This document shows positions 4,575 through 63,628 of a stretch of 64,000 bases of DNA, one piece after another (position 1 is the first letter of the stretch; each line of letters begins with the position of its first letter). This stretch comes from Gemmatimonas sp. (GTDB lineage Bacteria; Gemmatimonadota; Gemmatimonadetes; Gemmatimonadales; Gemmatimonadaceae): contig JANNVQ010000055.1 in the NCBI GenBank assembly GCA_031414535.1, forward strand, positions 1 to 64,000, given 5' to 3'. Made by a program: the position numbers and the translations under genes. The notes under the pieces are model-generated. The model made no database searches. It saw nothing but the letters and a program-made list of their open reading frames with translations, and was not told the origin of the DNA.

Positions 4575-4708
4575 TCACCACGGAGACACAGAGGCGCGGA
4601 GACTGCAACTGCAGGAGCCGCCATTTCAGGGGGGCCCGCGCCGAGAAGTCGATGCGGGCCCCCCAATCTTTCTCAAGTAGTCTCCGTGTCTCCGTGCCTC
4701 CGTGGTGA
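4575..4708. repeat. Family A palindromic element, copy 1 (3-unit arms)
   Basis: TCACCACGGAGACACAGAGGCGCGGAGACT ... AGTCTCCGTGTCTCCGTGCCTCCGTGGTGA with inner hairpin GGGGGGCCCGC/GCGGGCCCCCC. Confidence 0.9.
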
Positions 4709-4734
4709 GAGCAGTTTAACCGGCACAAACCCCG

Positions 4735-4763
4735 TTGTTTGCGCCCGCGAAATCGGCTAACTT
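4735..4763 (+). promoter_or_regulatory. Putative sigma70-type promoter for gyrA
   Basis: TTGTTT-17 bp-TAACTT, 46 bp upstream of the ATG. Confidence 0.45.
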
Positions 4764-4809
4764 CAGAGGTCGCTGTACCCTCTAGAAATCGCCCTCAAAT
4801 CGAGCGTCT

Positions 4810-7323: not shown

Positions 7324-7336
7324 CTACTAACGGCGG

Positions 7337-7458
7337 TCACCACGGAGGCACGGAGGGAGCCGCAATGAATTCACGGGCCCGCAACGCCAGAGAAGCAATT
7401 GCTTCTTGGAATTGCGGGCCCGTGAGTTTGCAGAGCACCCTCCGTGCCTCTGTGGTGA
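7337..7458. repeat. Family A palindromic element, copy 2
   Basis: TCACCACGGAGGCACGGAGGG ... CCCTCCGTGCCTCTGTGGTGA; inner CACGGGCCCGCAA..GAAGC-AATT-GCTTC..TTGCGGGCCCGTG. Confidence 0.9.
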
Positions 7459-10620: not shown

Positions 10621-10640
10621 GACGGATGACGGATGACGGA
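10621..10640. repeat. Family B heptamer array (GACGGAT)x~3, left arm only
   Basis: GACGGATGACGGATGACGGA directly after the stop codon. Confidence 0.7.
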
Positions 10641-10643
10641 AGA

Positions 10644-10672
10644 GGGCGGGGCCGCGAGGTCCCGCCCCTTTC
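10644..10672 (+). terminator. Intrinsic terminator-like hairpin
   Basis: GGGCGGGGCC-GCGA-GGTCCCGCCC followed by CTTTC. Confidence 0.6.
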
Positions 10673-19935: not shown

Positions 19936-20052
19936 CTTCGTCACTGCTTTTCGAGCGTTTTTCCCTCGCAAAACGAGGGTCCTCAAAGTTGCGGAAGTGT
20001 CGGCGGTGGAGCAGATTACCCCTCGTTCGCGCCCCTCTGGAGACCCTCCTCG

Positions 20053-21480
20053 ATGGTTCCGCACGTGACCCGCTTTTTCCTCGCCATTTCCGCCCTTGCC
20101 CTGATGGCAATGCCGGTGGCGGCTCAGCGCCCTGCACTCACGGGCGAAAAGGCCCAGGTCGCCGACGCGGTCAAGGCAGATCTCTCGCGGCTCTCCGACC
20201 TGCAGACGGCGCACCACAACCGCACCCGCGTCTACGCTGCGGATGCTCGCGACCTGAACTTCACGCCCACCTCGGGCGCCACAGTCAACATCGCCTACGC
20301 GTCCATGAACGCGTGGGCGGCCAACGCCACGCACCCCACGCTGTCGCCGGTGGCCTGTTTCATCATCATCTCCTCGGCGGAGCCCACGGGCCCAGCCGCG
20401 CAGCCGTTCTGTCAGGAGGGTCGCCCTGGTTCTACCACGGTGGCCTCGGGACAGCCCAGCACGGGAGCGGCCACCACGCCGCGTAACGCGCCCACCGCCT
20501 CGCCAAACGCGCCGGCCACCACGCCCAACACGGCACCCTCGACGCAGACGACGCCCGCGCAGCCTTCGCGGTCGGGCACGCCGAGCGTCCCGGTCACACC
20601 CGTCCCGGCGCCGGGCGTTCCGGCAGTAACCACCTCGCCCTCGCAGCCGGCTCGCGACGCACAGCCGACGCGAACTGACGCTCCGGCCCAGACCAGCACA
20701 CCGCGTCCGGAAACAGGTATGTCGCCAGTGCAGCCGGCTCAGCCGCTGCGCCAGCCGGGTGCCATTCAGCAGACGGGCGGCCCCATCATCCGTCCGCAGC
20801 AGCCGAGCGCGCTCCCGTATAGCGACATCCCAGCCAGTGCCCGCGCCGGTACGCGCGACATTGACCCCGCTGGCATGACTGTCCCCAGCGCAACAGAGAA
20901 CGTCACGCCGGCGCAGTTCTCGGCCAAGCTCAACGAGTTCGCACAGGGTGCCACCACGCTCCTCGCGCAGATTCCGGCCGATCTCGAGCGGATTGTTCGC
21001 GATCCCTACGAGAGCACGGCGGAGTTCCAGGCACGTCGCGCCGCGGCCCTCGAGTCAGCGCAGCGCAAGGAACGCGAGTTCTTCCAGCAGAACAGCAAGA
21101 CGTACAACGTGGCCGTGCCGGTGCGCGAAGTGCGGTACGATCCTGATCGCGAGATTTTTGAGTTCACCGTGGATGGCATGGGCCTGCCCATCACGCGCGG
21201 CGAAGGCACCGCGCCGGGTACGCTCACCTTCACTTGCTACTCGCGTCCCGTTTTCTGGTGCAGCACCGAGGCCGGCATAACGTACGAGGCCGGCGATATG
21301 TGGAAGATTCCGCGCGCCACGGCGCGCCAGTACGACATCCTCCGCACGCCGCTCACGCTGTACGCTCGCTTTGCCGTCGGTCGCCGCAACGACGCTTCCG
21401 TACTGGCCATCGCGCTGGTCTCGATGGATCTTCAGGCGCGTGGGCAGTCGGTTTCGCGGTGGGACGGCACGTCGCGCTGA
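20053..21480 (+). CDS. Secreted protein: pilin-like globular domain + Pro/Thr/Gln-rich linker + unknown C-terminal domain
   Basis: Sec signal peptide; 'KADLSRL..Q..H......Y....LNFTPTSG...WAANATHP...C...C'; long low-complexity linker. Confidence 0.65.
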   Translation: MVPHVTRFFLAISALALMAMPVAAQRPALTGEKAQVADAVKADLSRLSDLQTAHHNRTRVYAADARDLNFTPTSGATVNIAYASMNAWAANATHPTLSPVACFIIISSAEPTGPAAQPFCQEGRPGSTTVASGQPSTGAATTPRNAPTASPNAPATTPNTAPSTQTTPAQPSRSGTPSVPVTPVPAPGVPAVTTSPSQPARDAQPTRTDAPAQTSTPRPETGMSPVQPAQPLRQPGAIQQTGGPIIRPQQPSALPYSDIPASARAGTRDIDPAGMTVPSATENVTPAQFSAKLNEFAQGATTLLAQIPADLERIVRDPYESTAEFQARRAAALESAQRKEREFFQQNSKTYNVAVPVREVRYDPDREIFEFTVDGMGLPITRGEGTAPGTLTFTCYSRPVFWCSTEAGITYEAGDMWKIPRATARQYDILRTPLTLYARFAVGRRNDASVLAIALVSMDLQARGQSVSRWDGTSR

Positions 21481-22460
21481 GCCCGCTCGTCGGGCTCAAC
21501 GATTTCCGCGCCGCCGCTGACATTCTTCGCGGCGTCGCCGTTCGCACGCCGCTACTGCCCGACGACGCACTTTCCGAGCGACTCGGCGTACCGATTCTAT
21601 ACAAGCCCGAAACCCTCCAGCGCGGTGGAGCCTTCAAGTTCCGCGGCGCCTACACCTACCTCGCGAAGCTCTCGCCCGAAGCGCGCGCACTCGGCGTGAT
21701 TACGGCGAGTTCAGGCAATCACGGCCAAGGCGTGGCGTTGGCTGCCAAGATGTTCGGTGTGCGCGCCACGGTCGTCATGCCCACCACCGTGCCGCGCGCC
21801 AAACGCGATGGCGCCGAGCGCTTGGGCGCTCGTTGCTTCTACCATGGCGTGACCACGGCAGAGCGTATTGCGCGCGCCACCGAGATTCAGAATGCCGAGG
21901 GACTGACCTTCGTGCCGCCGTTCGACGACGACACCATCATCGCGGGGCAGGGCACCTGCGGTTTGGAGATTGTCGAAGACCTTCCGAATGTCGGGACGGT
22001 GCTCGTGCCGATCGGTGGCGGTGGATTGAGTTCTGGCGTGGCCGCAGCGGTGAAGCTGCTCGCGCCCAATGCGAGAGTGATTGGCGTGGAGCCCGCGGGT
22101 TCTCCCAAGTACACGAAGGCCAAGACCGCCGGCGAACCGGTGACCATCCCCGCCAACCCTGACGGCCTCGCCGATGGCCTGCTCGCCGTGCGCATCGGTG
22201 CGCGCAATTTTGAGCATCTTCAGGCATACTTGGATGATGTGGTGACGATACCTGATTCAGTACTGCACTGCGCCATGCAGTACGCGCTCGAGCGGATGAA
22301 GTTGGTGTGCGAGCCCAGTGGTGCCATCACGCTGGCGGCCCTACTTGATGGCACGGTGAAGCCGACCGGCCCCACGGTCGCCGTATTGAGTGGCGGGAAT
22401 ATTGAATACGACGGCGTCCGCGCTCTCTTAGGTGATGGCGCAATGGGAGGAACCACCTGA
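21459..22460 (+). CDS. PLP-dependent threonine/serine dehydratase family protein
   Basis: RTPL, GAFKFRGA (PLP Lys), SSGNHGQG, PIGGGGL, EPSGA, LSGGN. Start estimated at GTG 21459. Confidence 0.9.
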   Translation: MGRHVALSPLVGLNDFRAAADILRGVAVRTPLLPDDALSERLGVPILYKPETLQRGGAFKFRGAYTYLAKLSPEARALGVITASSGNHGQGVALAAKMFGVRATVVMPTTVPRAKRDGAERLGARCFYHGVTTAERIARATEIQNAEGLTFVPPFDDDTIIAGQGTCGLEIVEDLPNVGTVLVPIGGGGLSSGVAAAVKLLAPNARVIGVEPAGSPKYTKAKTAGEPVTIPANPDGLADGLLAVRIGARNFEHLQAYLDDVVTIPDSVLHCAMQYALERMKLVCEPSGAITLAALLDGTVKPTGPTVAVLSGGNIEYDGVRALLGDGAMGGTT

Positions 22461-23485
22461 TGGCAATGCGCTGCCCATCTTGCGGCACCGAGTACGCTGA
22501 CGACGCGCGCTTTTGCACCAAGGACGGCACGCGCTTGGGCACGAGCGAAGGTCCTTCGGCACGCGCCACGGCCGTGCGTGCAAACGATGGTCCGTCGGCG
22601 GCGACGCTCGGTGCGCGTCCGGCCGCCACTAGCCATGCGAACATGGCCGGTCAGGTGCTGGATCGCCGCTACGCCATCGTGAAGAAAGTCGGCGAGGGTG
22701 GTATGAGCTATGTGTATCTCGCCCGCGACGTCTCGAGCGATACACGCTACGCCATCAAAATCCTTTCGCCCGCGCTCTCCAAAGACGAAAACGCGATGGC
22801 CCGCCTGCGTCGTGAAGCGGCGCTCGGTATTCGCCTCGCGCATCCGAACGTCTGCCACATCGTGCGTATGGGCGAGACTGAGGATGGGCTCTGCTATGTG
22901 GTGATGCCCTTCGTGGAAGGCGAGATCCTCTCCGATCGCAATTATCGCGTGGGCAAGACGACGCTGGCCGACACGGGCAAGTTCATCTCGGAGATCGCCG
23001 ACGGGCTGCATGTGGCGCATCAATTGGGCATAGTCCATCGTGACCTCAAGCCCGAGAACATCATGATCTGCAAGCGTCCCACGGGTGAGGAATACGCCGT
23101 GGTGATGGACTTCGGTCTCGCCAAGGAGCGCAAAGCTGGTGGCGAACTCCAGAAGCTCACCGCCACGGGCATCATTCTTGGCACGCCGGAGTTCATGAGC
23201 CCCGAGCAACTGCGTGGAAGGCCGCTCGACCCGCGCACGGACATCTACTCGTTGGCGCTGATGACCTACGAGATGCTGACGTCCAAGCTGCCGTTCGAAG
23301 GTGGCAATCAGCAGGCGATGATGATTGCGCGTCTGCGCGCCGAGCCGATTCCGGCGCGGAGTCGCCTGCCAGAATTGCCGGAGGCGGTGGACCGCGTGTT
23401 GCTCAAGGGTATGGCTCGCGAAGCGGCCGATCGCTACGTCACGGCACCGGAGTTTGCCGCCGCACTGCGCGCCGCAATCGGGTGA
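22460..23485 (+). CDS. Hanks-type Ser/Thr protein kinase with N-terminal zinc ribbon
   Basis: CPSC..FCTKDG ribbon; GEGGMSYVY, AIK, HRDLKPEN, DFG, GTPEFMSPEQ; no TM segment. Confidence 0.92.
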   Translation: MAMRCPSCGTEYADDARFCTKDGTRLGTSEGPSARATAVRANDGPSAATLGARPAATSHANMAGQVLDRRYAIVKKVGEGGMSYVYLARDVSSDTRYAIKILSPALSKDENAMARLRREAALGIRLAHPNVCHIVRMGETEDGLCYVVMPFVEGEILSDRNYRVGKTTLADTGKFISEIADGLHVAHQLGIVHRDLKPENIMICKRPTGEEYAVVMDFGLAKERKAGGELQKLTATGIILGTPEFMSPEQLRGRPLDPRTDIYSLALMTYEMLTSKLPFEGGNQQAMMIARLRAEPIPARSRLPELPEAVDRVLLKGMAREAADRYVTAPEFAAALRAAIG

Positions 23486-24357: not shown

Positions 24358-24387
24358 CGCGACCACAGCGCAATCACGCACTCGACT

Positions 24388-25284: not shown

Positions 25285-25721
25285 CGACCGTTTCGCTTGA
25301 GCTCGACGAGCAGGCAACGATCCTGAACGACTTCGATGTCTGACCGCGCCAGCTCGGCGGCCACTTCGTCGTTGCGAATGCCTAACTGGAACCACACCGC
25401 CCGCGGGCGTGCCGCCAGAAGGTCATCGAGGTGGCCGGGGATATCTGACGGCCTCCGAAAGACGTTCACCAAGTCCACGCGCTCACCAATTTCGCGGACG
25501 CTGCGGACGACGGGCTCGCCGAGGATTTCGGTCACGTCCGGGTAGTAGACTGGCACCGGATAGATCTTGAGGCCGGCGCGCTGGGCGTACTCCGGCACGT
25601 AGTAGGCCGGCGCTCCTGATTCCGCTGTCTTGATGCCCAGCACCGCCACGGTGCGCACGCGCGCGAGGAGGTCGTCAATCTGCGCCGAGCGTTCGAGGAG
25701 GCGGGACTGCCAATCGGTCAT
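25281..25721 (-). CDS. CoA-binding protein (YccU-like)
   Basis: TVAVLG, VDLVNVFRRP, AVWFQLGI, VVQDRC. Start at MTDWQ. Confidence 0.88.
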   Translation of the reverse strand: MTDWQSRLLERSAQIDDLLARVRTVAVLGIKTAESGAPAYYVPEYAQRAGLKIYPVPVYYPDVTEILGEPVVRSVREIGERVDLVNVFRRPSDIPGHLDDLLAARPRAVWFQLGIRNDEVAAELARSDIEVVQDRCLLVELKRNGR

Positions 25722-25810
25722 CGTCGGATGGAGGCGGGGTGAAAATCTGAGTGAAAATCCGGTAGATTTGGAGGCTGTCCAGAAAAGTACCCCCCGTCCG
25801 GAGCCATACA

Positions 25811-26962: not shown

Positions 26963-26968
26963 GACGTG

Positions 26969-27088
26969 CACCACGAAGGCACGAAGGGCTCACAGTAAAC
27001 TCACGGCCCCGCAATCCTAAAGAAGAAGTGCTTCTTGGAATGGCGGGGCCGTCGGATTGTCGCAGCACCCTTGGTGCCTGCGTGGTGA
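26969..27088. repeat. Family A palindromic element, copy 3
   Basis: CACCACGAAGGCACGAAGGG ... CCCTTGGTGCCTGCGTGGTGA; inner ACGGCCCCGC..AAGAAG/CTTCTT..GCGGGGCCGT. Confidence 0.88.
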
Positions 27089-27709: not shown

Positions 27710-27720
27710 CCTCAGACTGA

Positions 27721-28210: not shown

Positions 28211-29178
28211 CGGAGATCATCTCGAACGCCGCCGACTTCACACTGAAGATTGTCGCCGACTATCCCGTGTCGGTGGAGCGGCTCTGGGAGGCGTATTCTG
28301 ATCCGCGGCAGATTGAACGCTTCTGGGGACCGGAGCAGTGGCCGGCGACGTTTACGCGGCACGACATGGCTGTAGGTGGCATGTCCACCTATTACATGAC
28401 CGGACCCGACGGCAATACGTCTGGCGGATACTGGCGCTTCCTGACGGTGGAGCCGTACAAGTCATTCGAAGTCCTCGACGGCTTCGCCGATGCTAGCGGC
28501 GCACCCAACGATAGTATGCCGACCATGCGCATGGTCTTTCAGTTCTCCCAGACCGCGACGGGCTCGCGCTTCGAGATCGTGACTTACTTTCCCAGCCTCG
28601 AGGCCATGGAAGAGCTAGTGAAGATGGGCATGATGGAAGGCATGAAGTCGGCGATGGGGCAAATCGATGCCGTGTTGCTCGACTTGAAGACCTTCGCGGC
28701 CACGATGCCGACCGAGGCGCAGATACTCAACGACACGCAGATTCGCGTGAGCCGCGTGATTCGCGGCCGCGTGGCAGACGTGTGGCGCGCCCATCACGAT
28801 CCCGCTCTCATGAAGCGTTGGCTACTTGGTCCCGATGGCTGGACGATGCCCACCTGCGAGATCGCCACCACGGTTGGACAGCGCTATCGCTACGAGTGGG
28901 AGACGCTCGATAAGTCACAGCGCTTTGGCTTCGAGGGCGAGTTGCTGGAGACGAACCCGCCGCATCGCGCAGTCACGAGCGAGCAGATGATTGGGATGGA
29001 CGGTCCCGGAACACGCAACGAGATGACGCTCACCGCGGTCCCGAGCGGGACACTGCTCAGCATCGTCATCACCTACCCGAGCAAGGACGTGCGCGACATG
29101 GTACTCGGCACCGGCATGACGGCCGGCATGGAAACCAGCTATGCGCGGCTTGAGCGTGAGATCCTTGTGAAGGCTTAA
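28201..29178 (+). CDS. Tandem SRPBCC/AHSA1 domain protein
   Basis: Two START-like repeats (LWEAYSDP..ERFWGP; VWRAHHDP..KRWLLGP). Confidence 0.88.
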   Translation: MPITEIISNAADFTLKIVADYPVSVERLWEAYSDPRQIERFWGPEQWPATFTRHDMAVGGMSTYYMTGPDGNTSGGYWRFLTVEPYKSFEVLDGFADASGAPNDSMPTMRMVFQFSQTATGSRFEIVTYFPSLEAMEELVKMGMMEGMKSAMGQIDAVLLDLKTFAATMPTEAQILNDTQIRVSRVIRGRVADVWRAHHDPALMKRWLLGPDGWTMPTCEIATTVGQRYRYEWETLDKSQRFGFEGELLETNPPHRAVTSEQMIGMDGPGTRNEMTLTAVPSGTLLSIVITYPSKDVRDMVLGTGMTAGMETSYARLEREILVKA

Positions 29179-29184
29179 CTGCTT

Positions 29185-29305
29185 TCACCACGAAGGCACG
29201 AAGGGTGCCGCAATAATCTTTCGGCCCCGCAACCCCAAAAAGCATTCCTTTCTTAGGGTTGCGGGGCCGTCAGTTTGCAGGGAACCCTTCGTGCCTTCGT
29301 GGTGA
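29185..29305. repeat. Family A palindromic element, copy 4
   Basis: TCACCACGAAGGCACGAAGGGT ... ACCCTTCGTGCCTTCGTGGTGA perfect arms; inner CGGCCCCGCAACCC/GGGTTGCGGGGCCG; between convergent genes. Confidence 0.92.
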
Positions 29306-41116: not shown

Positions 41117-41182
41117 GGACGGATGACGGATGACGGATGCTGGGGCAGTTCGCTTGTGGCATCCGTTATCCGTCTTCCGTCC
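41117..41182. repeat. Family B heptamer hairpin element
   Basis: G-(GACGGAT)x3-GC / 18-nt loop / GC-ATCCGTT-ATCCGTC-TTCCGTC-C, just after the aspA stop. Confidence 0.85.
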
Positions 41183-44946: not shown

Positions 44947-45633
44947 ATGTCCGCACACGCAGACGGCGCAGCACACGCCGAACATCACACGCACTACACG
45001 ACCACCGGTCTCGACAACCGGAAGATCGCCATCTGGGCGTTCATCGGGTCGGAGTGCATGCTCTTCGCTTCGCTCATCGCGACCTACCTGATTTACAAGG
45101 GCAAGTCGCTGGTCGGTCCGTATCCGCACACCGAGTACATCGATGCCGCGGGCAAGGTGTTCAAGCCCATCCTCGACATCCCAGTCACCTCGGCGTCCAC
45201 CTTCGTGCTCTTGGCGTCATCGTTCGCGATGGTGCTCGCCCTGCAGGCCGTGCAACTAAAGGGCGTCCCACTGCCCTCGGGCGCTGGCTGGTGGACGCGC
45301 GCGCAGCGCTCCTCGCAGCTCTGGCTCGCAGTGACCGCCGCACTGGGCACCACCTTTCTCGGCTTCCAGGCCTACGAGTTCACCGCATTCGTGAACGAAG
45401 GCCTGACCATCAAGACCAACCTGTTTGGCTCCACGTTCTTCACGCTGACCGGCTTCCACGGCGCGCACGTGACCGTGGGCGTGCTCTGGCTGATGTCGCT
45501 ACTCTGGGTGGATCGCACCCGCGGCCTGGCCGGTCCGGGCGATGAGCTGCTCGTAGACATCACGGCGCTGTACTGGCACTTCGTGGACGTCGTCTGGATC
45601 GCGATCTTTACGCTCGTCTACCTCATTCAGTAA
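44947..45633 (+). CDS. ctaE: Cytochrome c oxidase subunit III
   Basis: WAFIGSECMLF, LTGFHGAHV, LYWHFVDVVW. Confidence 0.93.
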   Translation: MSAHADGAAHAEHHTHYTTTGLDNRKIAIWAFIGSECMLFASLIATYLIYKGKSLVGPYPHTEYIDAAGKVFKPILDIPVTSASTFVLLASSFAMVLALQAVQLKGVPLPSGAGWWTRAQRSSQLWLAVTAALGTTFLGFQAYEFTAFVNEGLTIKTNLFGSTFFTLTGFHGAHVTVGVLWLMSLLWVDRTRGLAGPGDELLVDITALYWHFVDVVWIAIFTLVYLIQ

Positions 45634-45645
45634 CCGGGCACCGAA

Positions 45646-45969
45646 ATGGCACACGAATCCGCGCACGTCGACAAGCACGCCGCCCACGCGCATCCGAACG
45701 GTGCGACCTACCTCAAGATCTTCGTCATCCTGACGCTGATTACGGTGGTCGAGGTCTGGGCGTACTACATCCCAGCCCTCGTTGCGTCCCCGCTGTTCAA
45801 TCCGTCGCTCATCATCATGTCGGCGGTGAAGTTCGCCATCGTGGTGATGTTCTATATGCACCTGAAGTACGATCACAAGATTTTCAAAATGCTATTCAGC
45901 GGACCGCTCGTCATTGCCATGGCGACGATTGTGGCGCTGTTGTTCCTGTTCCGGCAGCTCAGCTTCTAG
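45646..45969 (+). CDS. Cytochrome c oxidase subunit IV family protein
   Basis: LTLITVVEV, KFAIVVMFYMHLKYD; last structural gene of the operon. Confidence 0.88.
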   Translation: MAHESAHVDKHAAHAHPNGATYLKIFVILTLITVVEVWAYYIPALVASPLFNPSLIIMSAVKFAIVVMFYMHLKYDHKIFKMLFSGPLVIAMATIVALLFLFRQLSF

Positions 45970-45988
45970 AAAGAACGGCAGAGGCCTT

Positions 45989-46110
45989 TCACCACGAAGG
46001 CACGAAGGGAATCGAAACACACTCACGGCCCCGCAACCCTAAAGAAGCTCTAGCTTCTTGGCGTAGCGGGGCCGAAAGTTTTCTGCAAACTCTTCGTGCC
46101 TTCGTGGTGA
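45989..46110. repeat. Family A palindromic element, copy 5
   Basis: TCACCACGAAGGCACGAAG ... CTTCGTGCCTTCGTGGTGA; inner CGGCCCCGC..AAGAAGC-TCTA-GCTTCTT..GCGGGGCCG. Confidence 0.92.
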
Positions 46111-46132
46111 AAGCCGTTAAATTTCCAGACGA

Positions 46133-46963
46133 ATGCGCATTCCACAGATATTCCTGCACCCCAACGTTGACCTGAGCCAAGGCGGATTCACTACGCATTG
46201 GTCTACAGTCACGGGGTTGGTCGTATTGCAGGCGCTGTGGATTCTTCGTGCACGCGCGCATGCGCCCCACGAGAAGCCGAGCCCACTTCAGACTTTCTGC
46301 TTCACCATCGGTCTCGTGGTGATGTTCTTCGCGTTGAATGGGCCGGTGCACGATATCTCCGACTTCTATTTGTTCAGCGGACACATGGTGCAGCATCTCG
46401 TGCTTACCATCGTCGTGCCGCCGCTGCTCCTGCTGGGCACGCCGGGCTGGATGCTGCGGCCTGCGCTCAAGAACGCCACCGTGAATCGCGTCGCGAAGAT
46501 CATCACCGTCCCGACCGCGGCATTCACAATCTTCAATCTCGTCCTCGCTGGCTGGCACCTGCCGCCGATGTATAACGCGGCCATGTACTACCATGCCGTG
46601 CACATCATTCAACACCTGATGTTCCTGGTGGCGGCAGTGCTCATGTGGTGGCCCATGCTGAGCCCGTTGCCGGAGTTGCCGCGCTTGAGCTACCCGGGAC
46701 AGATGCTGTACAGCTTCGTGATGACGCTACCGATGACCATCATATCAATCTTCATCGTCTATGCCGACCACGTGCTGTATCCCGCCTACGCGAGCTCGCC
46801 GCGGCTCTGGGGGCTGTCTCCACTGGAGGACCAGCGGCTTGGTGGACTCATCATGTGGATACCGGGCGGATTGTTCTTTTATCTACTGACTTCGGTGATT
46901 TTCTTCCGCTGGGTGACGGCCGAGCGCGACGATCAGGTCGGAGCTCAGGTCCGCGAGGCCTAG
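46133..46963 (+). CDS. ctaG: caa3-type cytochrome c oxidase assembly factor
   Basis: LFSGHMVQHL, WHLP..Y, H..QHL, DQRLGGLIMW. Confidence 0.88.
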   Translation: MRIPQIFLHPNVDLSQGGFTTHWSTVTGLVVLQALWILRARAHAPHEKPSPLQTFCFTIGLVVMFFALNGPVHDISDFYLFSGHMVQHLVLTIVVPPLLLLGTPGWMLRPALKNATVNRVAKIITVPTAAFTIFNLVLAGWHLPPMYNAAMYYHAVHIIQHLMFLVAAVLMWWPMLSPLPELPRLSYPGQMLYSFVMTLPMTIISIFIVYADHVLYPAYASSPRLWGLSPLEDQRLGGLIMWIPGGLFFYLLTSVIFFRWVTAERDDQVGAQVREA

Positions 46964-46997
46964 GAGCAACCCCTCCGGGGTGCTAACCTACGAGGAG

Positions 46998-48554
46998 ATG
47001 CCACCGCGACCGCTACTTCTTCTGACCCTCTCTGCGGCCTTGCTGGCTGCTGAGGTTGGCGCGCAGGGCACGAGTCGGCCACCAGCACCACGCCCCACCG
47101 GGCAGGTGGCCCGTCCCACGGTCTCCGCCGCTGCCCGCAGGCCCGCACCGAACCGCAGCGTGTTGCGCGCCACCACGCCCAGAGGTTTGGCCGCGCTCAA
47201 GCGCGACTTGGACTACCTCGTGAACTCGAGTACGAATCGAGGTGAATGGGGCGTCGCCGTCGTATCGCTCACGCGTGGAGACACGCTGTACGCGCGCGAA
47301 GCGGATGAGATGCTGCTCCCCGCTTCGACGATGAAGCTCTTCACGGCCGCGATCGTTTTTGAGCGGTTTGGCCCGGCGCATCAGTTTCGCACGGATATCC
47401 TTCGCGACGGAGAGTTGGGTCGCGATGGGACTTTGAGTGGGAACCTGTATCTCAAGGGTGCAGGCGATCCTTCGCTCGGGGCGCGGTATCGCGCCTGGCA
47501 CGGCGGTGTGGCACCGATGGAAGCAATCGCCGACCTTGTCTATGCCTCGGGTGTGCGCCGCGTCTCCGGCGGCATCATTGGCGATGCGTCGGCGTTCGAG
47601 AGTCGTCGCGTGCCCGAAGGCTGGCGTACACGCTACCTGCAAGCTGGCTATGCAGCCCGAGTCTCGGCGCTCTCGGTCAATGAGAATGTCGCCAACATCG
47701 TGGTGCGCTCCACGGCCGGCGGCGCGACGGTGAGTTTCGACGAGCCCCTCATTGGCATACCCATCTATCCCACGGTGCAGGTGCGTCCCGGCCAGCGCGG
47801 CGCGCGCATCAGCGTGTGGCAAGACACGACGGCGGATCGCTTTCGCGTCACTGGATGGATTGGCGCCCTGAGTCCCGAGCGTACGTATCGCGTCGTGGTG
47901 GAACAGCCGGAGCGCTTCGCGGCGGCGGCGTTCCGCGCGGCGCTTGAGAAGCGAGGCATCGTGGTGGATGGCGAGACGTCCGCCTCCACCGCACCCGCGA
48001 CTGCGGAGCGCCTCACAGCCTGGGCATCACCGCCACTCGCGCAACTCGTGGTGACCATGAACGGCGAGAGCAACAATCACTTTGCCGAATTATTGTTCCG
48101 CAACGCCGCGCGCTCGGTGAGCGGAGTGGGGAGCGCCGAAGCGGCGAATGAGGCGCTCCGCACCTTCTTGTCGGAGCGGGTCGGCGTTCGGCGGGACGCC
48201 GTGTACGCCGCTGACGGCAGTGGTCTCTCGACGCTCGATCGCGTGACGGCGCGCTCAATGGTGCAACTGCTCGCCTACGCCGGCTCGGCGCCCTGGGGGC
48301 AGGTGTTTCAAGCCACGCTCCCGGTGGCGGGACGCAGCGAGACGCTCCGCACTCGCATGCGCCGCACGCCCGCCGCCGACAATCTGCGCGCCAAGACTGG
48401 CACCACCAACGACGTCACCTCGCTCGCCGGCTACGTGAGTACGCACGACGGCGAGCCACTAGCCTTCGCATTCATCTATAACGGTCGTGATCCGTGGCGC
48501 GCACGCGCCGCGATTGACGCGATGGGTGTGACGCTCGCGGGATTCTCCCGCTAG
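46998..48554 (+). CDS. dacB: D-alanyl-D-alanine carboxypeptidase/endopeptidase (PBP4, S13)
   Basis: PASTMK (SxxK), GAGDPSL, SNN, DGSGLS, AKTGT. Confidence 0.92.
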   Translation: MPPRPLLLLTLSAALLAAEVGAQGTSRPPAPRPTGQVARPTVSAAARRPAPNRSVLRATTPRGLAALKRDLDYLVNSSTNRGEWGVAVVSLTRGDTLYAREADEMLLPASTMKLFTAAIVFERFGPAHQFRTDILRDGELGRDGTLSGNLYLKGAGDPSLGARYRAWHGGVAPMEAIADLVYASGVRRVSGGIIGDASAFESRRVPEGWRTRYLQAGYAARVSALSVNENVANIVVRSTAGGATVSFDEPLIGIPIYPTVQVRPGQRGARISVWQDTTADRFRVTGWIGALSPERTYRVVVEQPERFAAAAFRAALEKRGIVVDGETSASTAPATAERLTAWASPPLAQLVVTMNGESNNHFAELLFRNAARSVSGVGSAEAANEALRTFLSERVGVRRDAVYAADGSGLSTLDRVTARSMVQLLAYAGSAPWGQVFQATLPVAGRSETLRTRMRRTPAADNLRAKTGTTNDVTSLAGYVSTHDGEPLAFAFIYNGRDPWRARAAIDAMGVTLAGFSR

Positions 48555-48560
48555 AGCGGG

Positions 48561-48815
48561 CTAGCTGAGCAGCGGTCCTTCGGTGGCGCTCGGGTCCGTC
48601 GCCGCGGTGGCATCAAGAATTCGCACCGCAGTGTCCACGTCGCCCTGACGCACGACGAGGCGCACGGGGTTCAACACATTCAAGAACGGCAGCATCCCGC
48701 CAGCGTTGTCCTTCAAGAGCATGCTGACAATGCCGTTGGCATCGAGCACCGATTGCGCAAACTCGGCTTCGATGCTGTTCTGATACGACCGGACGACGAA
48801 CGCATTCTCTGGCAT
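48561..48815 (-). CDS. DUF2007-like putative signal-transducing small protein
   Basis: EAEFAQSVLDANGI...VRLVVRQGDVDTA pattern; GGAGG SD before ATG 48815. Confidence 0.75.
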   Translation of the reverse strand: MPENAFVVRSYQNSIEAEFAQSVLDANGIVSMLLKDNAGGMLPFLNVLNPVRLVVRQGDVDTAVRILDATAATDPSATEGPLLS

Positions 48816-48925
48816 CGTACCTCCGGAGGCCGTGTGGATGAGCGGGTATCGTAACCTTGGCGCCGAATGTTGGCTAGGCGCTCCCATGTGGGAAGATACC
48901 GTGCGGTGAGCGCAATAGTTCCCCG

Positions 48926-50125
48926 CTAGCCCTCGCGCATCCAGCGCAAGGTTTCACGAAGTGTCGGCTCCTTCCCGTACATCAACATGCCAGCGCCAAA
49001 CACCTTGCCCGCTATGCGTCTGAAGAGCCAAGTGGTCGCGGAAAGCAGCAACAACGCCAATACTACCTCCCACCACGCGACCGTCGTCACCGCGAGACGC
49101 ATCGGCATCATCGCGCTGGAGGTAAGGGGAAAGACGCCAAGCACTTGAGCCGCCGGCGAATCAAGCTTGGATGTCATGCCGAACGCCACGCCAATCGGCA
49201 GCATCGGCGCAAAGAGGAGCAGCGTGCGCGTCGAGCTGTTCGGATCGTCAATCGTCGCGGCGATTGCGGCCATCAGGCTGAACCACAGCACCACGCCCAG
49301 TAGCGTGATGAGGGTAATGAGCGCGAGTACACCGAAGTCCCCGCCCAGTGACGGCATGGGCAATGCGCTGCGACCGAGCGCCAAGGGTAGCACCTTCACC
49401 ACGGCGTAGAGGCCGATGGTCGTGATGCCGGTTCCTACCAGCGCCGCACCGGTAAGTCCGATGATCTTGCCGTCCATCCACACCTGCGGCGGAACGATGG
49501 CAACCAACTGTTCCGTCACGCGCTGCTGCTTCTCACCCGTGATGCCCGTGAACAGCGTACCAAATCCGCCCATGACCAGCGTGAACCCGATGAACAGGAT
49601 GGCCAGCGCCGTGATGCGCGTCGAGAGTTCCGTACGCCTGGCGCCAGCATCTGTGAGTGTCTTGCGGAAGGCGAATGGCGTCACTAAGGCCGCGCCTTCC
49701 GGCGACGCGGCCACGACCCGTGCGAGCAACGCGGACTGCCGCGCTGCCGTCAGCGCACGCTCGAGAGTTTCCGCCCACTCGGCCTGTGATCGAATCATCA
49801 GTTCCGCCTCGAGGGCCGACGTCACCACGAGCACGCCGCTCAGTCTCTTCTCAGCGAGCGCCGCGCTTGCGGACGCCACCGTCCACGATTCGGAGCTATC
49901 CCAGGCCACGGGCTTGGCCTCGGGAAGCGGGAAGCCCAGCAAATCGCCGCCAATCACAGCAATCATCCTCGGCTTTTGCTCCGCCTTCGCAACGGATCGT
50001 CCAACGAAGCCTCCGCCGAAGCCCATCACGAGCAAAATCGCGAAGCCAATGAGCTGCTGCTTCCACTTCACGAAGCGCATGAATTCCCAGCGCGCCACCT
50101 CCCACGTCTGTTGCCAGCGCGTCAC
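48926..50125 (-). CDS. ABC-2 type permease (NatB-like)
   Basis: VARWEF, GEKQQRVTEQL, GKIIG, MPMRL. Confidence 0.88.
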   Translation of the reverse strand: MTRWQQTWEVARWEFMRFVKWKQQLIGFAILLVMGFGGGFVGRSVAKAEQKPRMIAVIGGDLLGFPLPEAKPVAWDSSESWTVASASAALAEKRLSGVLVVTSALEAELMIRSQAEWAETLERALTAARQSALLARVVAASPEGAALVTPFAFRKTLTDAGARRTELSTRITALAILFIGFTLVMGGFGTLFTGITGEKQQRVTEQLVAIVPPQVWMDGKIIGLTGAALVGTGITTIGLYAVVKVLPLALGRSALPMPSLGGDFGVLALITLITLLGVVLWFSLMAAIAATIDDPNSSTRTLLLFAPMLPIGVAFGMTSKLDSPAAQVLGVFPLTSSAMMPMRLAVTTVAWWEVVLALLLLSATTWLFRRIAGKVFGAGMLMYGKEPTLRETLRWMREG

Positions 50126-50865
50126 GCCGCCTCCCCATTGGTGATGCCAAGTTCCGCGTTGGCCGCTCCTACCTTTTCGACGTAGAGATCGTGCAGCGTC
50201 CCTCCGGCCACGAGCTCGCAGATACTCCCGTGCAGGAGTTCCTTGCCGCGATGTAGCACCATCACACGATCCGCCATTCGCTCTACCAGCGACATCTGGT
50301 GCGCGCTGAACAGCAGCGTGGTGCCCGCCGCGCGAAGCTCACGCACAATCGAAAGGAATAACTCTTGATTGATCGGATCGAGGCCGCTGAATGGTTCGTC
50401 CAGAATCGCGAAGCGTGGCGAATGCAGAATCGCTGCGGCCAGCTGCACCTTCTGCTGGTTGCCCTTTGACAAAGCGCTCAGCTTCTCCTTGGCGCGGTCG
50501 CCGAGTTCAAAGCGCTCAAGCCAAGTACTGGCGCGGCGTTCTGCCTCAGGGCCCGCTATGCCGCGCAGACGCGCGAAGTACGTGAGCGTGCGCTTGATGG
50601 GCATATCCTGATACAGGCCGCGATCCTCAGGCAGGTACCCCAGGTCGGCTGGTGGCAGCGATGAAGCGCCGCCCTGCCACACAATCCGTCCACGGTCTGG
50701 CCGCGTGATGCCGACGAGCATGCGGAGCAGTGTGGTCTTGCCAGCGCCGTTGGGGCCGAGCAACGCGACGGCCTCGCCGGGCTGCACCTCGAGAGAAATG
50801 CCCGCGACGGCCTGCACCGTGCTGTAGCGCTTCTCGACGCGATCAATCGTGAGGAATGCTGTCAT
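50122..50865 (-). CDS. ABC transporter ATP-binding protein (NatA-like)
   Basis: GPNGAGKTT, LSKGNQQ, ILDEPFSGLDP, H-loop. Confidence 0.93.
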   Translation of the reverse strand: MTAFLTIDRVEKRYSTVQAVAGISLEVQPGEAVALLGPNGAGKTTLLRMLVGITRPDRGRIVWQGGASSLPPADLGYLPEDRGLYQDMPIKRTLTYFARLRGIAGPEAERRASTWLERFELGDRAKEKLSALSKGNQQKVQLAAAILHSPRFAILDEPFSGLDPINQELFLSIVRELRAAGTTLLFSAHQMSLVERMADRVMVLHRGKELLHGSICELVAGGTLHDLYVEKVGAANAELGITNGEAA

Positions 50866-50949
50866 GGTTCCCGATACGAAAGCGTGCGGGCTAACGTTTC
50901 GGCAAGAGCGCAACGATTTGCGTGATAGCTGGACAAGTACAAGGGCTAT

Positions 50950-51073
50950 TCACCACGAAGGCACGAAGGGCTCCCTGCAGCGTCCATCATCGACGCGCCC
51001 CCTAAAGTTCTTAGACTTTAGGGGGCGCGCTGAGTTACAGATCTGCTGGAAACCCTTCGTGCCTTCGTGGTGA
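50950..51073. repeat. Family A palindromic element, copy 6
   Basis: TCACCACGAAGGCACGAAGGG ... CCCTTCGTGCCTTCGTGGTGA; different inner hairpin GCGCCCCCTAAAGT/ACTTTAGGGGGCGC. Confidence 0.92.
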
Positions 51074-51079
51074 AAGTCG

Positions 51080-52912
51080 TTACCGCGAACGCAGCGTCGA
51101 ACTCCCACCCTTCTGCGAATCAGCCGTCACGGTAAACGGCCCCGCTCCCTGCACAATCCACTTCACGCGCACGATGCCCTGACCGGGAATGTTGCCCACG
51201 CGAATCGTGCCTGGATTGTTCTTCTGCTCCGTGGCATCGCCATTGAGCGGATTGTCCACGATGAAGCCCGAGATTACACGCCCGCCCGACAGCGAAATCA
51301 GGTTTGGCCGTGAGATGCGATTCTCGATGTCCTGCTGCGTGTGCGTCGGCGCAACGCGGCGGTTCACCACCACCGCCGTGACTTCCGTGAGCCCGTTGCC
51401 CAGCGAGCGCGTCGTCACCGAGTCCACCTGTACCAGTGGCATCTGCGAGGTCTGGTAGAGCGTAAACATCATGTTGCGATGCCCGTCGCTCTGCAGCATG
51501 AAGCCTGGCTCCACGCGCCCGAAGTTCTTCTTGGTGCCGCCAACTTCCACGCGCCCGTACTGCGGGTGGCCTACTTCCGTCCACTCCACCATCGCCTCGC
51601 CCATCAGCAGCAGGCGATTGAAGCGGGACTCCGTGGTCTGGTAGCGACGATTCTGCGCATTCCCGCCGCCAAAACCACCATCATCCTGCGCGTTCTTGTA
51701 GAAGTAGAGGAACGGCGTCCACAGCTCGTTGGAAAACGTCAGGATACCGCGCGCCCCATAAAACCAATCGAGTTCTCCACCCCACACCGTGTAGAGATCC
51801 TTCCACACAATCATGTAGCGGTAACCCGGCAGCACTTCCTCGCCAACGCGGCCGAGCTGGTCGAAGACCTGCACGTCCTGCGGGCGATACTCATCCTGAG
51901 GCACGCCCGGACCACGGAGCAGCATCCCGCCGCTGTTGTGGTAGCTCTGGGCGCCGGCAATGTTGGGATGCGCAATCACGAAATTCATGATGTTGCGCGT
52001 CTCCATGAGCGAACCGGGATAGCGATCCGCGCCGCCCTGCACATACTGCGGCGCCCAACGCCAAGGCCAATTACGGTTCGGGTCGTAGACGCCGGGCCCG
52101 TCTTCGTTCACGACGCCGTCGCCGTCGTTGTCAAAGCCCTCGGCGCCGAGTAGGTCGTACTCGCCTTGTTCGCCGGGCAGCACCGGCACCAAGAGCCGCG
52201 GATCTTCCGGCGACACACGAAAGCGGCCGTTCGTATTGCGACGGCGCATCTGCGTGATGTGGCCGTCGCCATTCAGGTCATCCAAGCCGTCTTCGTCCAC
52301 GCGCCCGTCGCCGTCCGTGTCGCGCGGCGCGAGACCGGTACGCGGCGAACTCGCGTTGTTGGGCTCGTGGATGTAATGGTCGCGTCCGTCCGGATTGATG
52401 CTGGGCACGATGTACAGCGTGTAATTGCGCAGCAGCGAATCCACGGCCGGCACGCGGTCCGCCATCTCCGCGAGGTACCACGCCGTGTACAGCGAGAACT
52501 CGGCGCCCTGTATCTCGTTGGCGTGGATGTTGCCGTCAATCCACATCGCCGGCTTCTTGTCTGCATCACCCACCGCGAAGTTGGTGACGGTGACCAGGAA
52601 CATCTCACGGCCTTCTGTGCTCTTGCCAATCGTGCCAAGCTTCACGAAGCCCGGATGCGCCGTGGAGAGACGACGGGCAATCTCGTGCAGGCCGGCGTGA
52701 TCGTAGAAGCGATCCCAGCTGACGGCCACCTTTGGGTTTGGGGGCGAGCCGAGTGCGGCCAGCGCACCAGCCACTGGTGGCTGCGTGGCGCGCGTGGCTG
52801 GTGGTGAGGTTCGGATTTGCGCACACAGCGCAACAGGTGTGGCCACGAGGGCCGCGAGCGTGAATAGCGCACCAATGCGTGGTGCGACGGACTTCGTCAA
52901 TGCAAATGGCAT
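51080..52912 (-). CDS. Secreted M14 zinc carboxypeptidase-family protein (intact active site)
   Basis: IHANE (HxxE), NPDG, DPNRNW, SYHN; DxDGDG repeats. Confidence 0.88.
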   Translation of the reverse strand: MPFALTKSVAPRIGALFTLAALVATPVALCAQIRTSPPATRATQPPVAGALAALGSPPNPKVAVSWDRFYDHAGLHEIARRLSTAHPGFVKLGTIGKSTEGREMFLVTVTNFAVGDADKKPAMWIDGNIHANEIQGAEFSLYTAWYLAEMADRVPAVDSLLRNYTLYIVPSINPDGRDHYIHEPNNASSPRTGLAPRDTDGDGRVDEDGLDDLNGDGHITQMRRRNTNGRFRVSPEDPRLLVPVLPGEQGEYDLLGAEGFDNDGDGVVNEDGPGVYDPNRNWPWRWAPQYVQGGADRYPGSLMETRNIMNFVIAHPNIAGAQSYHNSGGMLLRGPGVPQDEYRPQDVQVFDQLGRVGEEVLPGYRYMIVWKDLYTVWGGELDWFYGARGILTFSNELWTPFLYFYKNAQDDGGFGGGNAQNRRYQTTESRFNRLLLMGEAMVEWTEVGHPQYGRVEVGGTKKNFGRVEPGFMLQSDGHRNMMFTLYQTSQMPLVQVDSVTTRSLGNGLTEVTAVVVNRRVAPTHTQQDIENRISRPNLISLSGGRVISGFIVDNPLNGDATEQKNNPGTIRVGNIPGQGIVRVKWIVQGAGPFTVTADSQKGGSSTLRSR

Positions 52913-60594: not shown

Positions 60595-60778
60595 GGGCTT
60601 CTGTCCATTTGTGGGAGGTCTTCTCCCAGAATCCCGTCCGAATACGCGCGCAGCGGCATATTTCAGCATGACCGAACGCAATCGTTTGATTGATGCGTTA
60701 CGCCGCGTGCATAACGGTGTGCCCTGGCACGGACCGTCATGCGCTGCTGCTGCAGCATCCCCCCACTCTTAGGTCGCT

Positions 60779-63532
60779 GTGTCCTCTCTCCTCACGCCCC
60801 AACGCCGCGCGACGCTGATTTTCATCGTCGGCGTCATCCTGCTCCTCGCGATTCCCGCGCTCGCCACCGCCGTCACCGACTGGCTCTGGTTCCGCGAGAT
60901 CGGATTCGAGCGCGTGTTCACGCTCAAGATCACCGCACAGTTATTTCTTGGCGGTACTGCCTTCGTACTTGGCTTCACGGCGCTCTACGGTTCGGCGCGT
61001 CTCGCGCTGCGGGGCCTTGAGCGTTCCGCGGAAAGTATTCTCGTGCTGGCTGAGGGCGGTGTGCAGATGCGCACCAAGTTCCTCGTGCGCGTGGCGCAGG
61101 CGCTCACGTTGCCGGCGACATTGTTGCTCTCGTTTTTACTCGCCTCGGGCCTGGCTTCGCGCTGGCGTACGCTGATTCAGTTCTGGTACCGTACGCCTTT
61201 CGGTGATACTGATCCAATCTTCGGGCGCGACATCGCGTACTACGTATTCACCTTGCCGGCGCTGCAAGTGGCATTGGATTGGATTTGGGGATTGCTGTTT
61301 CTCTCGCTCATCCTTATTTCCATCCCGATCTATGTAGTGCGTGGTGACATCGGTCTGCGGTTGGGCCGCCTGCGCATCGATCAGCAGGCAGAGTGGCACC
61401 TAGCCGTTCTCGCGGCGCTGTGGCTCGTGCTGTCGGCGGTACGTTCCTGGTTGATTGGTATGCCAGGGGTGCTCTTTGGGACGCACGCGCCACTCCAGGG
61501 TGCCAACTGGACCGACTTGCACGTGCGCCTGCCCGGCATGCAAGTGATGGCCGTGTTGTTGCTCGTTGGCGCGGTTGCGGTTCTGTGGGGTGCACGTCGC
61601 GGGATCTTGGCGCGCATCGCGGTAATTGTCGTGGTGGGAAACTTCCTGCTGACGGCGCTCGTGAACGGTGTGGTGCCAAGCGTGGTGCAGCGCCTCGTAG
61701 TGCAGCCCAACGAACTGGCTAAGGAATCGGCGCAGATCATCCATCACATCGCGGCCACGCGCCGCGCCTGGTCGCTTGACAGTGTGGAGCGTCGCGAGCT
61801 GGACGGCGACCAGCAACTCACGGCAGCAGACATCGCCGCAAACCGCTCGACCATTGATAACGTGCGGCTATGGGATCGCGAGCCGCTGCTACAGACCTTC
61901 GGGCAGATTCAGTCCATCCGCACCTACTACGACTTCGTGGCGGTGGATGACGATCGCTATCGCGTGAACGGTGAATTGCGCCACGTGTTGCTCTCAGCGC
62001 GCGAACTCGATCCCGCGGCTTTGCCCACGCGCACCTTCGTGAATGAGCATCTGACCTTCACGCACGGTATGGGCCTTACGCTCAGCGCGTCGAACGAGGT
62101 CACGCCGGAAGGACTGCCGGTCTTGTGGATGAAGGATCTCCCGCCGACATCAACGATGACGCAGCAGGCTCGCGTGCCGCAGATCTACTTCGGCGAGTTG
62201 GCGCGCACCTGGGTGATGGCGCCGTCGCGGCAGCGCGAGTTCGATTTTCCATCCGCCGAGGGTGATGCCGCGGAGTATTCGACCTACACCGGCAAGGCCG
62301 GCGTGGCGCTCAATGCGTATTGGCGTCGCTTGGCCTTCGCCATCCGCTTCGGAAGCATCAACATCTTGCTGTCATCCGATCTCACCGACAGCACGCGCAT
62401 CATCTTCAATCAGCAGGTGCGGACGCGGGCTCAACTCGCGCTGCCCTTCCTGACCTTTGACGGCGATCCATACCTCGTTGTCAGCGACAGTGGTCGCATG
62501 ATCTGGATGCTCGACGCGTACACGGCCACAGACCGCTATCCGTACTCGGCGCGCACGGGCGAAGGCATCAACTACCTGCGTAACAGCGTGAAGGTGACCA
62601 TTGACGCCTATGATGGTGACCTGAAGGCGTACTTGGCGGATCCGACAGATCCAATGATCAACACGCTGAGCCGCATTTATCCGGGCCTGCTACGTCCGCT
62701 CGCCGAGATGCCGGAAGACCTGCGGGCGCACATGCGCTATCCGGAGGACCTCTTCCGCGCGCAGACGGGGCTCTACGCCACGTTTCATATGACGGATCCC
62801 GAGACGTTCTACCACCGCGAGGACCAGTGGCAGATTCCTGAAGCGCAGCAGGGTGCGGTACGTAGCGGCTATGCGCGGCACATCGTGATGCGCCTGCCTG
62901 GGGAGAAGGGGGCGGAGTACCTGATGATGCGCCCCTTCACGCCGCGGCAGAAGGACAATCTCGCGGCCTGGATGGTGGCTCGAAACGACGGGGAGCACTA
63001 CGGCAAACTGATTGCGTACCGCTTCCCGCGGCAAAGCTTGGTGTTTGGCCCGACGCAGATTGCGAACCGCATTAATCAAGACACCGAGGTGTCGCAGCAG
63101 GTGTCACTGTGGGACCAGGGTGGCTCGGAAGTGATTCGGGGCGAACTCTTGGTTATTCCGATTGAAGCGTCGCTGCTGTACGTGCAGCCGCTCTACTTGC
63201 GCGCGCAAGGCGGCAAGATTCCTGAGCTCAAGCGCGTGATCGTGGCGCACGAGGGGCGGGTGGTGATGGAAGAGACCTTCGAGCAGGGGTTGGAGGCTTT
63301 GTTTGGCGATGGTGCGGCCTCAAGCGCTCGTGGTGCCACGCGCCCGGCGCAGCGTACCGACTCCACCGCCACGCCGACGTCGCGCGCGGCCGATGCGGCC
63401 CGTGACGCACTCGTGCAGCAGGCCGTACAACTCTACGAGCGCGCCAAGACGGCCCAGCGCGCCGATGATTGGGCGGCGTACGGGGACGCGATGCAGCGAC
63501 TGGGTGAAGTGCTGCGGAGATTGCGGCAGTAA
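60779..63532 (+). CDS. UPF0182 family membrane protein
   Basis: TDWLWFREIG, DPIFGRDIAYY, NVRLWD, HLTFTHG, NYLRNSVK, HMRYP, LLYVQPLY, PELKRVI. Confidence 0.92.
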   Translation: MSSLLTPQRRATLIFIVGVILLLAIPALATAVTDWLWFREIGFERVFTLKITAQLFLGGTAFVLGFTALYGSARLALRGLERSAESILVLAEGGVQMRTKFLVRVAQALTLPATLLLSFLLASGLASRWRTLIQFWYRTPFGDTDPIFGRDIAYYVFTLPALQVALDWIWGLLFLSLILISIPIYVVRGDIGLRLGRLRIDQQAEWHLAVLAALWLVLSAVRSWLIGMPGVLFGTHAPLQGANWTDLHVRLPGMQVMAVLLLVGAVAVLWGARRGILARIAVIVVVGNFLLTALVNGVVPSVVQRLVVQPNELAKESAQIIHHIAATRRAWSLDSVERRELDGDQQLTAADIAANRSTIDNVRLWDREPLLQTFGQIQSIRTYYDFVAVDDDRYRVNGELRHVLLSARELDPAALPTRTFVNEHLTFTHGMGLTLSASNEVTPEGLPVLWMKDLPPTSTMTQQARVPQIYFGELARTWVMAPSRQREFDFPSAEGDAAEYSTYTGKAGVALNAYWRRLAFAIRFGSINILLSSDLTDSTRIIFNQQVRTRAQLALPFLTFDGDPYLVVSDSGRMIWMLDAYTATDRYPYSARTGEGINYLRNSVKVTIDAYDGDLKAYLADPTDPMINTLSRIYPGLLRPLAEMPEDLRAHMRYPEDLFRAQTGLYATFHMTDPETFYHREDQWQIPEAQQGAVRSGYARHIVMRLPGEKGAEYLMMRPFTPRQKDNLAAWMVARNDGEHYGKLIAYRFPRQSLVFGPTQIANRINQDTEVSQQVSLWDQGGSEVIRGELLVIPIEASLLYVQPLYLRAQGGKIPELKRVIVAHEGRVVMEETFEQGLEALFGDGAASSARGATRPAQRTDSTATPTSRAADAARDALVQQAVQLYERAKTAQRADDWAAYGDAMQRLGEVLRRLRQ

Positions 63533-63560
63533 TCGGCCACCGAAGGCGGCAACTGCTGAT

Positions 63561-63628
63561 TCACCACGGAGACACGGAGGCCCGGAGACTGCTTGAGTAG
63601 TCTCCGGGCCTCCGCGCCTCTGTGGTGA
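63561..63628. repeat. Family A palindromic element, copy 7 (minimal, no inner hairpin)
   Basis: TCACCACGGAGACACGGAGGCCCGGAGACT-GCTTGAGT-AGTCTCCGGGCCTCCGCGCCTCTGTGGTGA; between convergent genes. Confidence 0.92.

Follow-up and report, generated by a model that had tools for sequence, protein, structure and literature searches.

Word-armed palindromes at gene ends in Gemmatimonas and a gene-carrying copy that encodes a GxxExxY-family protein

Family A palindromes in the window and in its genome

The DNA analyzed here, which we call the window, is a 64,000-nucleotide stretch of contig JANNVQ010000055.1 of a Gemmatimonas sp. assembly (GCA_031414535.1), and between its genes lie seven full copies and one remnant of a palindromic repeat that we call family A (Table 1). 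A preliminary description made from the letters of the window had claimed the seven palindromes, and all of them are real, the arm pattern being matched 14 times against 0.02 expected (none of 100 shuffles reached 14) and every copy folding as a single long hairpin (z of −6.3 to −13.9). Six of its coordinates are exact, but the third copy begins at 26968, one base to the left of 26969. Five copies had been given as 120–124 bp long with divergent interiors; their lengths are indeed 121–124 bp, but four of them (7337, 26968, 29185, and 45989) share one interior subfamily (I1, 83% complementary). Six copies lie 6–20 nt from a stop codon, close to the 20 bp described, but the copy at 63561 lies at 25 and 29 nt. 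The joint changes noticed in the two arms of a copy recur as left-right agreement in GAAG or GGAG in 56 of 59 pairs, but this is mostly a subfamily effect, and at two further variable positions the left and right arms change independently.

Table 1. Features of the window that belong to, or interrupt, family A
Feature	Position	Strand	Arms and interior	Context	Same site in relatives
IS110-family 3' end	1..130	+	last codons, stop 113-115, short right end	inserted in arm of the eighth family A copy	
Eighth family A copy, arm remnant	131..150	no strand	CT core 131-132	outer motif overlaps stop codon of a sucB-like gene; remainder of the copy is the end of contig C24	
Family A copy	4566..4716 (core 4575-4708, 134 bp)	no strand	three GGAG-type units, interior type ii (by eye)	spacer of an MscS-type gene and gyrA; outer AAC(T/G)GC motifs flank core	G078 has another type, G017 a nested 9-nt type; no copy in G024
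Family A copy	7329..7458 (core 7337-7458, 122 bp)	no strand	two GGAG units, type i interior	after gyrA	filled in G078, with GAAG arms
Family A copy	26968..27088 (121 bp)	no strand	two GAAG units, right arm decayed, interior type i		no copy in G003 (spacer of 3 bp) or G004; G078 and G023 hold other types
Family A copy	29176..29305 (core 29185-29305, 121 bp)	no strand	two GAAG units, interior type i	between convergent genes, at 3' end of leuS	at least four other forms across six relatives (G023, G027, G078, G003, G012, G017); IS110 within arm in G024 and G029
Family A copy	45989..46110 (122 bp)	no strand	two GAAG units, interior type i		hairpin without arms in G078; G023 and G017 carry arms of family B type
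Family A copy	50950..51073 (124 bp)	no strand	two GAAG units, interior type iii	93% identical to the copy at C14:353648	
Short family A copy	63561..63628 (68 bp)	no strand	three GGAG-type units, almost no interior	convergent genes	long type ii copies in G023 and G078

The genome that holds the window (G000; 3.70 Mb, 98% complete, with contigs given as C-numbers) was searched with a relaxed arm pattern, as the preliminary description had proposed, and yielded 139 matches that form 61 paired copies and leave 17 unpaired, a few by chance. The arms are rows of tandem CAC-R-R-AG-N words with no palindrome inside an arm, and just outside them the motif AAC(T/G)GC stands at 80 of 137 arms, compared with 0.9% of random windows. 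Interiors comprise three hairpin types, short forms, and others; the cores of types i and ii occur in G000 almost only within arms, and a copy is 81% identical to its nearest paralogue in the median case and 94% at most. GC-rich hairpins that resemble the interiors and lack arms were seen at orthologous sites in G028 and G069 (L044, L047) and in G078 (L063), and some interiors may therefore be captured terminators.

Sixty copies could be placed relative to genes, using home-made gene calls (3034 genes). All are intergenic, 26 lying between convergent, 31 between co-oriented, and only 3 between divergent genes, whereas the 1332 spacers of at least 60 bp used for comparison include 128 convergent and 362 divergent ones. 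A stop codon is found within 15 nt of 44 copies and within 25 nt of 54. For 22 of the 31 co-oriented copies the stop is no more than 15 nt away (mean of 7.3 under the null; none of 10,000 simulations reached 22), whereas one copy has the start that close. Of 75 stop-facing arms, 33 have an outer AAC motif that overlaps the stop codon, compared with 333 of 3034 genes. Repetitive extragenic palindromic (REP) sequences within 15 nt of a stop codon reportedly cause ribosome stalling. The absence of an obvious target duplication, first noticed in the window, is borne out genome-wide, with at least six bases shared directly in 4 of 60 flank pairs against 5.2% in the control.

A gene-carrying copy and its distribution across the genus

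One of the 61 pairs (C24:46966–47401) encloses a gene, and this is the sole match of G000 to TIGR04256 (GxxExxY). The gene is intact, with its start codon directly after one arm and its stop codon against the other, and its 123-residue product is a full-length member of PDDEXK_3 (TIGR04256, E of 5.9e-40; PF13366, E of 1.1e-39). In the nearly complete genome G017, the sequence at the end of C24 runs on into that at the start of the window, which places the gene ~3.5 kb to the left of position 1, across the IS110 break. It had been stated that the window holds no mobilizing gene, which is true of the window itself, but the cognate gene lies just beyond its edge. Arms of the same kind thus bracket both this gene and the gene-less copies.

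Residues Glu-27, Asp-67, Glu-77, and Lys-79 are invariant in all 29 aligned rows, and the catalytic Asp-Glu-Lys set is invariant in 120 of 120 database proteins. The structure was predicted with a pLDDT (predicted local distance difference test) score of 96, and its nearest folds are PD-(D/E)XK nucleases (Cas4, restriction domains, λ exonuclease, and Hjc), with none standing out; a profile search of PDB sequences returned nothing at E ≤ 10. The ratio of non-synonymous to synonymous substitution was 0.04–0.17 in six of nine pairs, the other three being saturated. When 30 genes from the genus were examined, 28 mapped to the sucB-lpdA neighborhood (two further genes were not among them). The GxxExxY family is very large (7996 hits among 8000 scored candidates), and a 2012 survey lists GxxExxY/PDDEXK_3 as of unknown function (PMC3424549). 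Tandem doubles (P0121–P0213) account for 95 of the 120 longer homologues listed, and in them the triad is intact in 91 first domains and in 1 second domain; this pattern suggests a dimer that would need only one active site, and a homodimer prediction with a score of 0.00 weighs neither way. The nuclease domain stands at the C terminus of a longer open reading frame (ORF), often a housekeeping gene, in 23 of the other 25, and in several of these fusions the linker reads like a translated arm word.

To see the gene in a wider setting, we fetched 80 related genes from many phyla and dropped 2 at contig edges. Inverted-repeat flanks above the 99th percentile of shuffles were present at 59 of the remaining 78, compared with 2.6% of 2158 long ORFs of G000. 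Flanks in direct orientation passed in 16 of 78, and mismatched flank pairs passed in 22% because the arm word is common to many phyla.

Across 55 genomes of the genus scanned with a general arm pattern, arms were abundant (at least 20 matches, a cut-off chosen after the counts were seen; reversed-pattern controls reach 8) in 22 of 26 genomes with the gene and in 4 of 29 without it. The Fisher p of 1e-7 for this co-occurrence is overstated, because kin are not independent. The unit length in the arms of the gene is also that of the commonest gene-less copies, 8 nt in G000, G003, G006, G023, G027, and G062 and 9 nt in G017, G028, G029, and G063, and in G078 the word of the gene is that of the commonest gene-less copies, GAAG. 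Genes with 8-nt and 9-nt arms are split by one branch of the tree (95/94; labels by eye, with 9 of 32 rows unlabeled), a split that is expected from linkage of arms to gene alone. It is more telling that the dispersed copies go with the gene. G017, whose only gene is of the 9-nt type, is nested among 8-nt hosts; it contains 50 matches to the 9-nt pattern and none to three-unit 8-nt patterns, and sites with 8-nt arms in G000 are occupied by 9-nt copies in G017. G000 in turn has 53 three-unit RGAG matches and no 9-nt match, and G078 has 28 three-unit GAAG matches, like its own gene, and 16 of RGAG.

Old sites with replaced content

To compare content at shared sites, we mapped 42 arm pairs of G078 to G000. 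Once 2 duplicate listings of nested copies and 10 pairs that lacked synteny on both sides had been set aside, 30 unique syntenic sites were left, of which 25 are occupied in G000 and 5 are not. For 24 occupied pairs (a pair split by an insertion sequence (IS) was left out), the G078 copy was always closer to a G078 paralogue than to its orthologue, and the orthologue was the best match in G000 in one pair only. Drift lowers the identity of orthologues but cannot convert one interior type into another. The outer AAC(T/G)GC flanks are largely retained while the inside changes.

The boundaries of the change can be read in a much closer pair, G028 and G069, whose LeuS proteins are near-identical. 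Where the gene lies, their upstream flanks align with a single difference in 151 columns, yet the arms and gene are those of a different cassette; on both sides the exchange ends at the outermost CACCACAG unit. A swap between such close hosts indicates that the gene is also exchanged. From 30 of 44 arm hits in G069 we obtained 18 clusters, 14 of them two-sided, and dropped one with a poor flank. Of the 13 sites left, 5 are swapped (four gene-less copies and the gene), in each case with the AGGG word of its own gene in G069 and the AGAG word of its own gene in G028, whichever of the two changed. AGGG is the sole word in 6 of the 18 clusters of G069 and in 1 of the 20 clusters of G028.

Presence of a copy also differs among relatives, so family A is not fixed at all orthologous loci. 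Checking relatives for empty sites revealed unoccupied orthologous spacers in G003 and G004 at 26968 and in G024 at 4575 and after sucB, besides the five G078 sites, all at flank identities of 75–85%. Of four more candidates for an empty site sought in G069, three lacked orthologous flanks that span the copy, and the other is a deletion with a remnant of an arm left behind. In contigs of DNA runs over the window (four runs over 20000–39999 and three over 45200–51800, one of them probably the source sample), the best-supported joints never cleanly skip a copy. The preliminary description had taken family A for a non-autonomous mobile family, possibly undescribed. This agrees with the gene-carrying form, the empty sites, the lack of any Rfam match in the window at the gathering score, and the lack of a published description in our searches, but its main dynamic is replacement at long-occupied sites and not scattering to new ones.

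Copies of one arm type nested within another at the same site were seen in G078, G017, G028, and G069 (L082, L121, L076, L228, and L253), and two family A interiors of G078 (L098 and L089) contain IS481-like and IS30-like elements, as judged by eye.

Explanations of the replacement and related systems

We think it rather probable, from the sequence comparisons above, that family A consists of gene-less copies of the cassette that carries the GxxExxY PD-(D/E)XK nuclease, and that this nuclease overwrites resident copies in place. The enzyme would recognize its own arm word and would nick or cut a resident copy, possibly as a dimer; repair from another copy would then replace everything between the outermost arm units and leave the outer flanks as they were. 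Such a scheme leaves the founding of a new site beside a stop codon unexplained. A benefit to the host of hairpins at gene 3' ends is likely by analogy, since within the genus the gene is almost always kept in one chromosomal neighborhood under purifying selection, as the genes for REP-associated tyrosine transposases (RAYTs) are.

Several observations weigh against overwriting by the nuclease. At eight of the 13 G028/G069 sites both genomes have one and the same word, in some cases around diverged interiors, and none of the 13 is empty; because of these eight, the commonest word in G069 differs from that of its gene. Even the closest paralogues in G000 share no more than 94% identity, which gives no sign of a very recent event, and a relative at ~92% identity has no empty joint at the three sites examined. 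The two-unit GAAG subfamily of G000 differs from the GGAG arms of its gene and is common to G078. Across the genus, the kinship of the genomes compared counts here too, as do four gene-negative genomes with many arms (82–92% complete) and four gene-positive genomes with few. On the protein side, fold matches are general (best Z of 8.0), Foldseek found no match to the protein at E ≤ 0.001, the 123 residues leave it without a separate DNA-binding domain, and the tandem doubles may represent one or a few lineages. Lastly, a second repeat family, family B, brackets a four-helix-bundle gene (TIGR02436) on contig C27, so such an architecture also occurs without a nuclease.

The last point would fit an explanation in which the hairpins are kept as 3'-end signals of the host, such as bidirectional terminators or mRNA stabilizers, and are homogenized by host recombination, the gene being a passenger or a self-regulating binder. 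The excess of copies between convergent genes and their scarcity between divergent ones, the nearness of co-oriented copies to stops and not to starts, and the arm-less hairpins in G028, G069, and G078 are all consistent with it. We nevertheless regard it as unlikely, because it does not predict that repeats should be scarce where the gene is missing (25 of 29 genomes), nor that swapped copies should take the word of the resident gene. It also has to face invariant catalytic residues, arms that offer only ~20–30 bp of homology, and the absence of a transcribed-strand bias.

A conventional MITE (miniature inverted-repeat transposable element) that excises and inserts as a unit, with shared sites arising by repeated insertion at stop-codon hot spots, is an improbable account. 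Empty orthologous spacers, nested copies, and the C-terminal position of the nuclease in 23 of 25 single-domain fusions in other phyla would fit insertion, and family A resembles bacterial MITEs in its terminal inverted repeats, its non-coding interior, and the longer gene-carrying form with the same ends (C24:46966–47401). It differs in having no target duplication, in a full form without a DDE transposase, and in the replacement of content at old sites while the outer flanks largely stay, and 25 of 30 sites are shared among ~3000 spacers. No Y1 enzyme was found either in G000 or five relatives. The sites consistent with precise insertion are empties at 75–85% flank identity, and none occurs among the 13 sites of the closest pair or in the DNA-run contigs.

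The structured-RNA alternative offered in the preliminary description, with pairing under selection, is very improbable and finds no support in strand bias. Folds are very stable, and two-sided changes are seen in 10 of 39 pairs of type i and 8 of 44 of type ii. However, any DNA palindrome folds, and two-sided changes also come from subfamily descent or arm-to-arm correction; the 11 G-U against 17 A-C mismatches and the sense and antisense folding energies (p = 0.46) show no transcribed-strand bias, copies stand 8 sense to 4 antisense, and none in the window matches Rfam.

That the copies are integron attC-like recombination sites, with outer ends reading AAC...GTT, is extremely improbable. 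The outer AAC motif often overlaps the stop codon, as in integron cassettes, but we rejected this reading: core boxes of the form RYYYAAC...GTTRRRY occur in only 8 of the 80 arms with the outer motif, the copies lie between housekeeping genes, and the nuclease gene is within one palindrome and not between two sites.

The nearest known system is that of REPINs, hairpin-forming doublets of REP sequences, and their RAYTs. In REPIN-RAYT systems, as here with 61 pairs, many hairpin doublets are dispersed between genes, and a flanked single-copy gene under purifying selection is inherited like a housekeeping gene, with the repeat type following the gene. RAYTs are described as single-copy and mostly vertical (PMC5581495), and REP ends as also supplying stop codons to flanking genes (PMC3733652); according to the REPORTH preprint (10.1101/2024.10.14.618302), the REPINs in conserved spaces are overwritten to follow the RAYT that is resident. 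A single REP is palindromic, short, and marked by a conserved tetranucleotide (PMC3686654), whereas an arm of family A is a row of 8–9-nt words, and its gene sits within a single arm pair. The enzyme here is a 123-residue PD-(D/E)XK protein (PF13366) and not an HUH tyrosine transposase. The RAYT or Y1 mobilizer raised in the preliminary description did not turn up, with no match to PF01797 in G000 (98% complete) or in any of five relatives, and with no Y1 enzyme and a different arm anatomy, family A is not a member of REPIN-RAYT.

A wider reading can be put forward tentatively, namely that family A belongs to a second, convergent REPIN-like system spread across phyla, in which a Cas4/Hjc-like nuclease dimer would nick its own arms and rewrite the hairpins at gene ends with no transposase. 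Family A itself is best read as a REPIN-like system that is probably run by an unrelated nuclease; our literature search, which most subscription papers and the supplementary repeat lists of REP surveys fell outside, found no link of GxxExxY or its Pfam and TIGR identifiers to repeats. Even with RAYT, the way in which REPIN-type repeats at conserved sites become overwritten awaits an explanation, and if the reading were true, a second system with an unrelated enzyme would mean that the REPIN way of life arose twice, and the enzyme could supply a very small site-directed nickase. The GxxExxY family meanwhile gains a candidate DNA substrate. Since nature also offers two variants in specificity (units of 8 or 9 nt; words AGAG or AGGG) and the boundaries of exchange are mapped, a direct assay can be built.

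The arms are themselves the target of IS110 elements, a known kind of element with a new target. A near-complete copy on contig C35 matches PF01548 and PF02371, and in G000 all six left and all six right IS110 junctions, every one at a contig end, fall at the same CT of the arm word; of 107 target-like 14-mers, 100 lie within arms. Within the genus this CT is shared as a target by two distinct lineages of IS110, which are inserted in arms at loci of G078, G024, G029, and G006 as well, including an arm of the GxxExxY cassette of G078 itself. IS621 carries target and donor guide segments in its left non-coding end (PMC11208160). The IS110 elements here are like it in both Pfam domains, the CT core, the use of one fixed position of a host palindrome, and guide-like segments in the left ends of the two lineages that match target and donor by eye, and differ in that their target is the GxxExxY arm. 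The putative bridge RNA folds no more stably than shuffles (z of 0.63), the guides being predicted by sequence only.

Other word-armed repeats were seen in the same genome. Family B palindromes, with arms of a GACGGA(T/A) heptamer, lie in the window at 10621–10645, 27721–27771, and 41118–41181; there are 302 hits genome-wide, and a stop codon is no more than 15 nt away from 64 of the 88 pairs scored. With its four-helix-bundle gene on C27, family B looks like a parallel system that has an unrelated protein. A second four-helix-bundle gene (L227, 1400–1990 of contig C29) is bracketed by a third word family of GAAGAGC type with 52 hits genome-wide. If the wider reading were to hold, these families and family A could be examples of a general class in which a small single-copy gene maintains a word-armed repeat population of its own, a possibility as tentative as that reading. 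An attC-like repeat, unrelated in sequence to family A, stands at the ends of contigs C9, C10, C16, C23, C26, C31, and C36 of G000.

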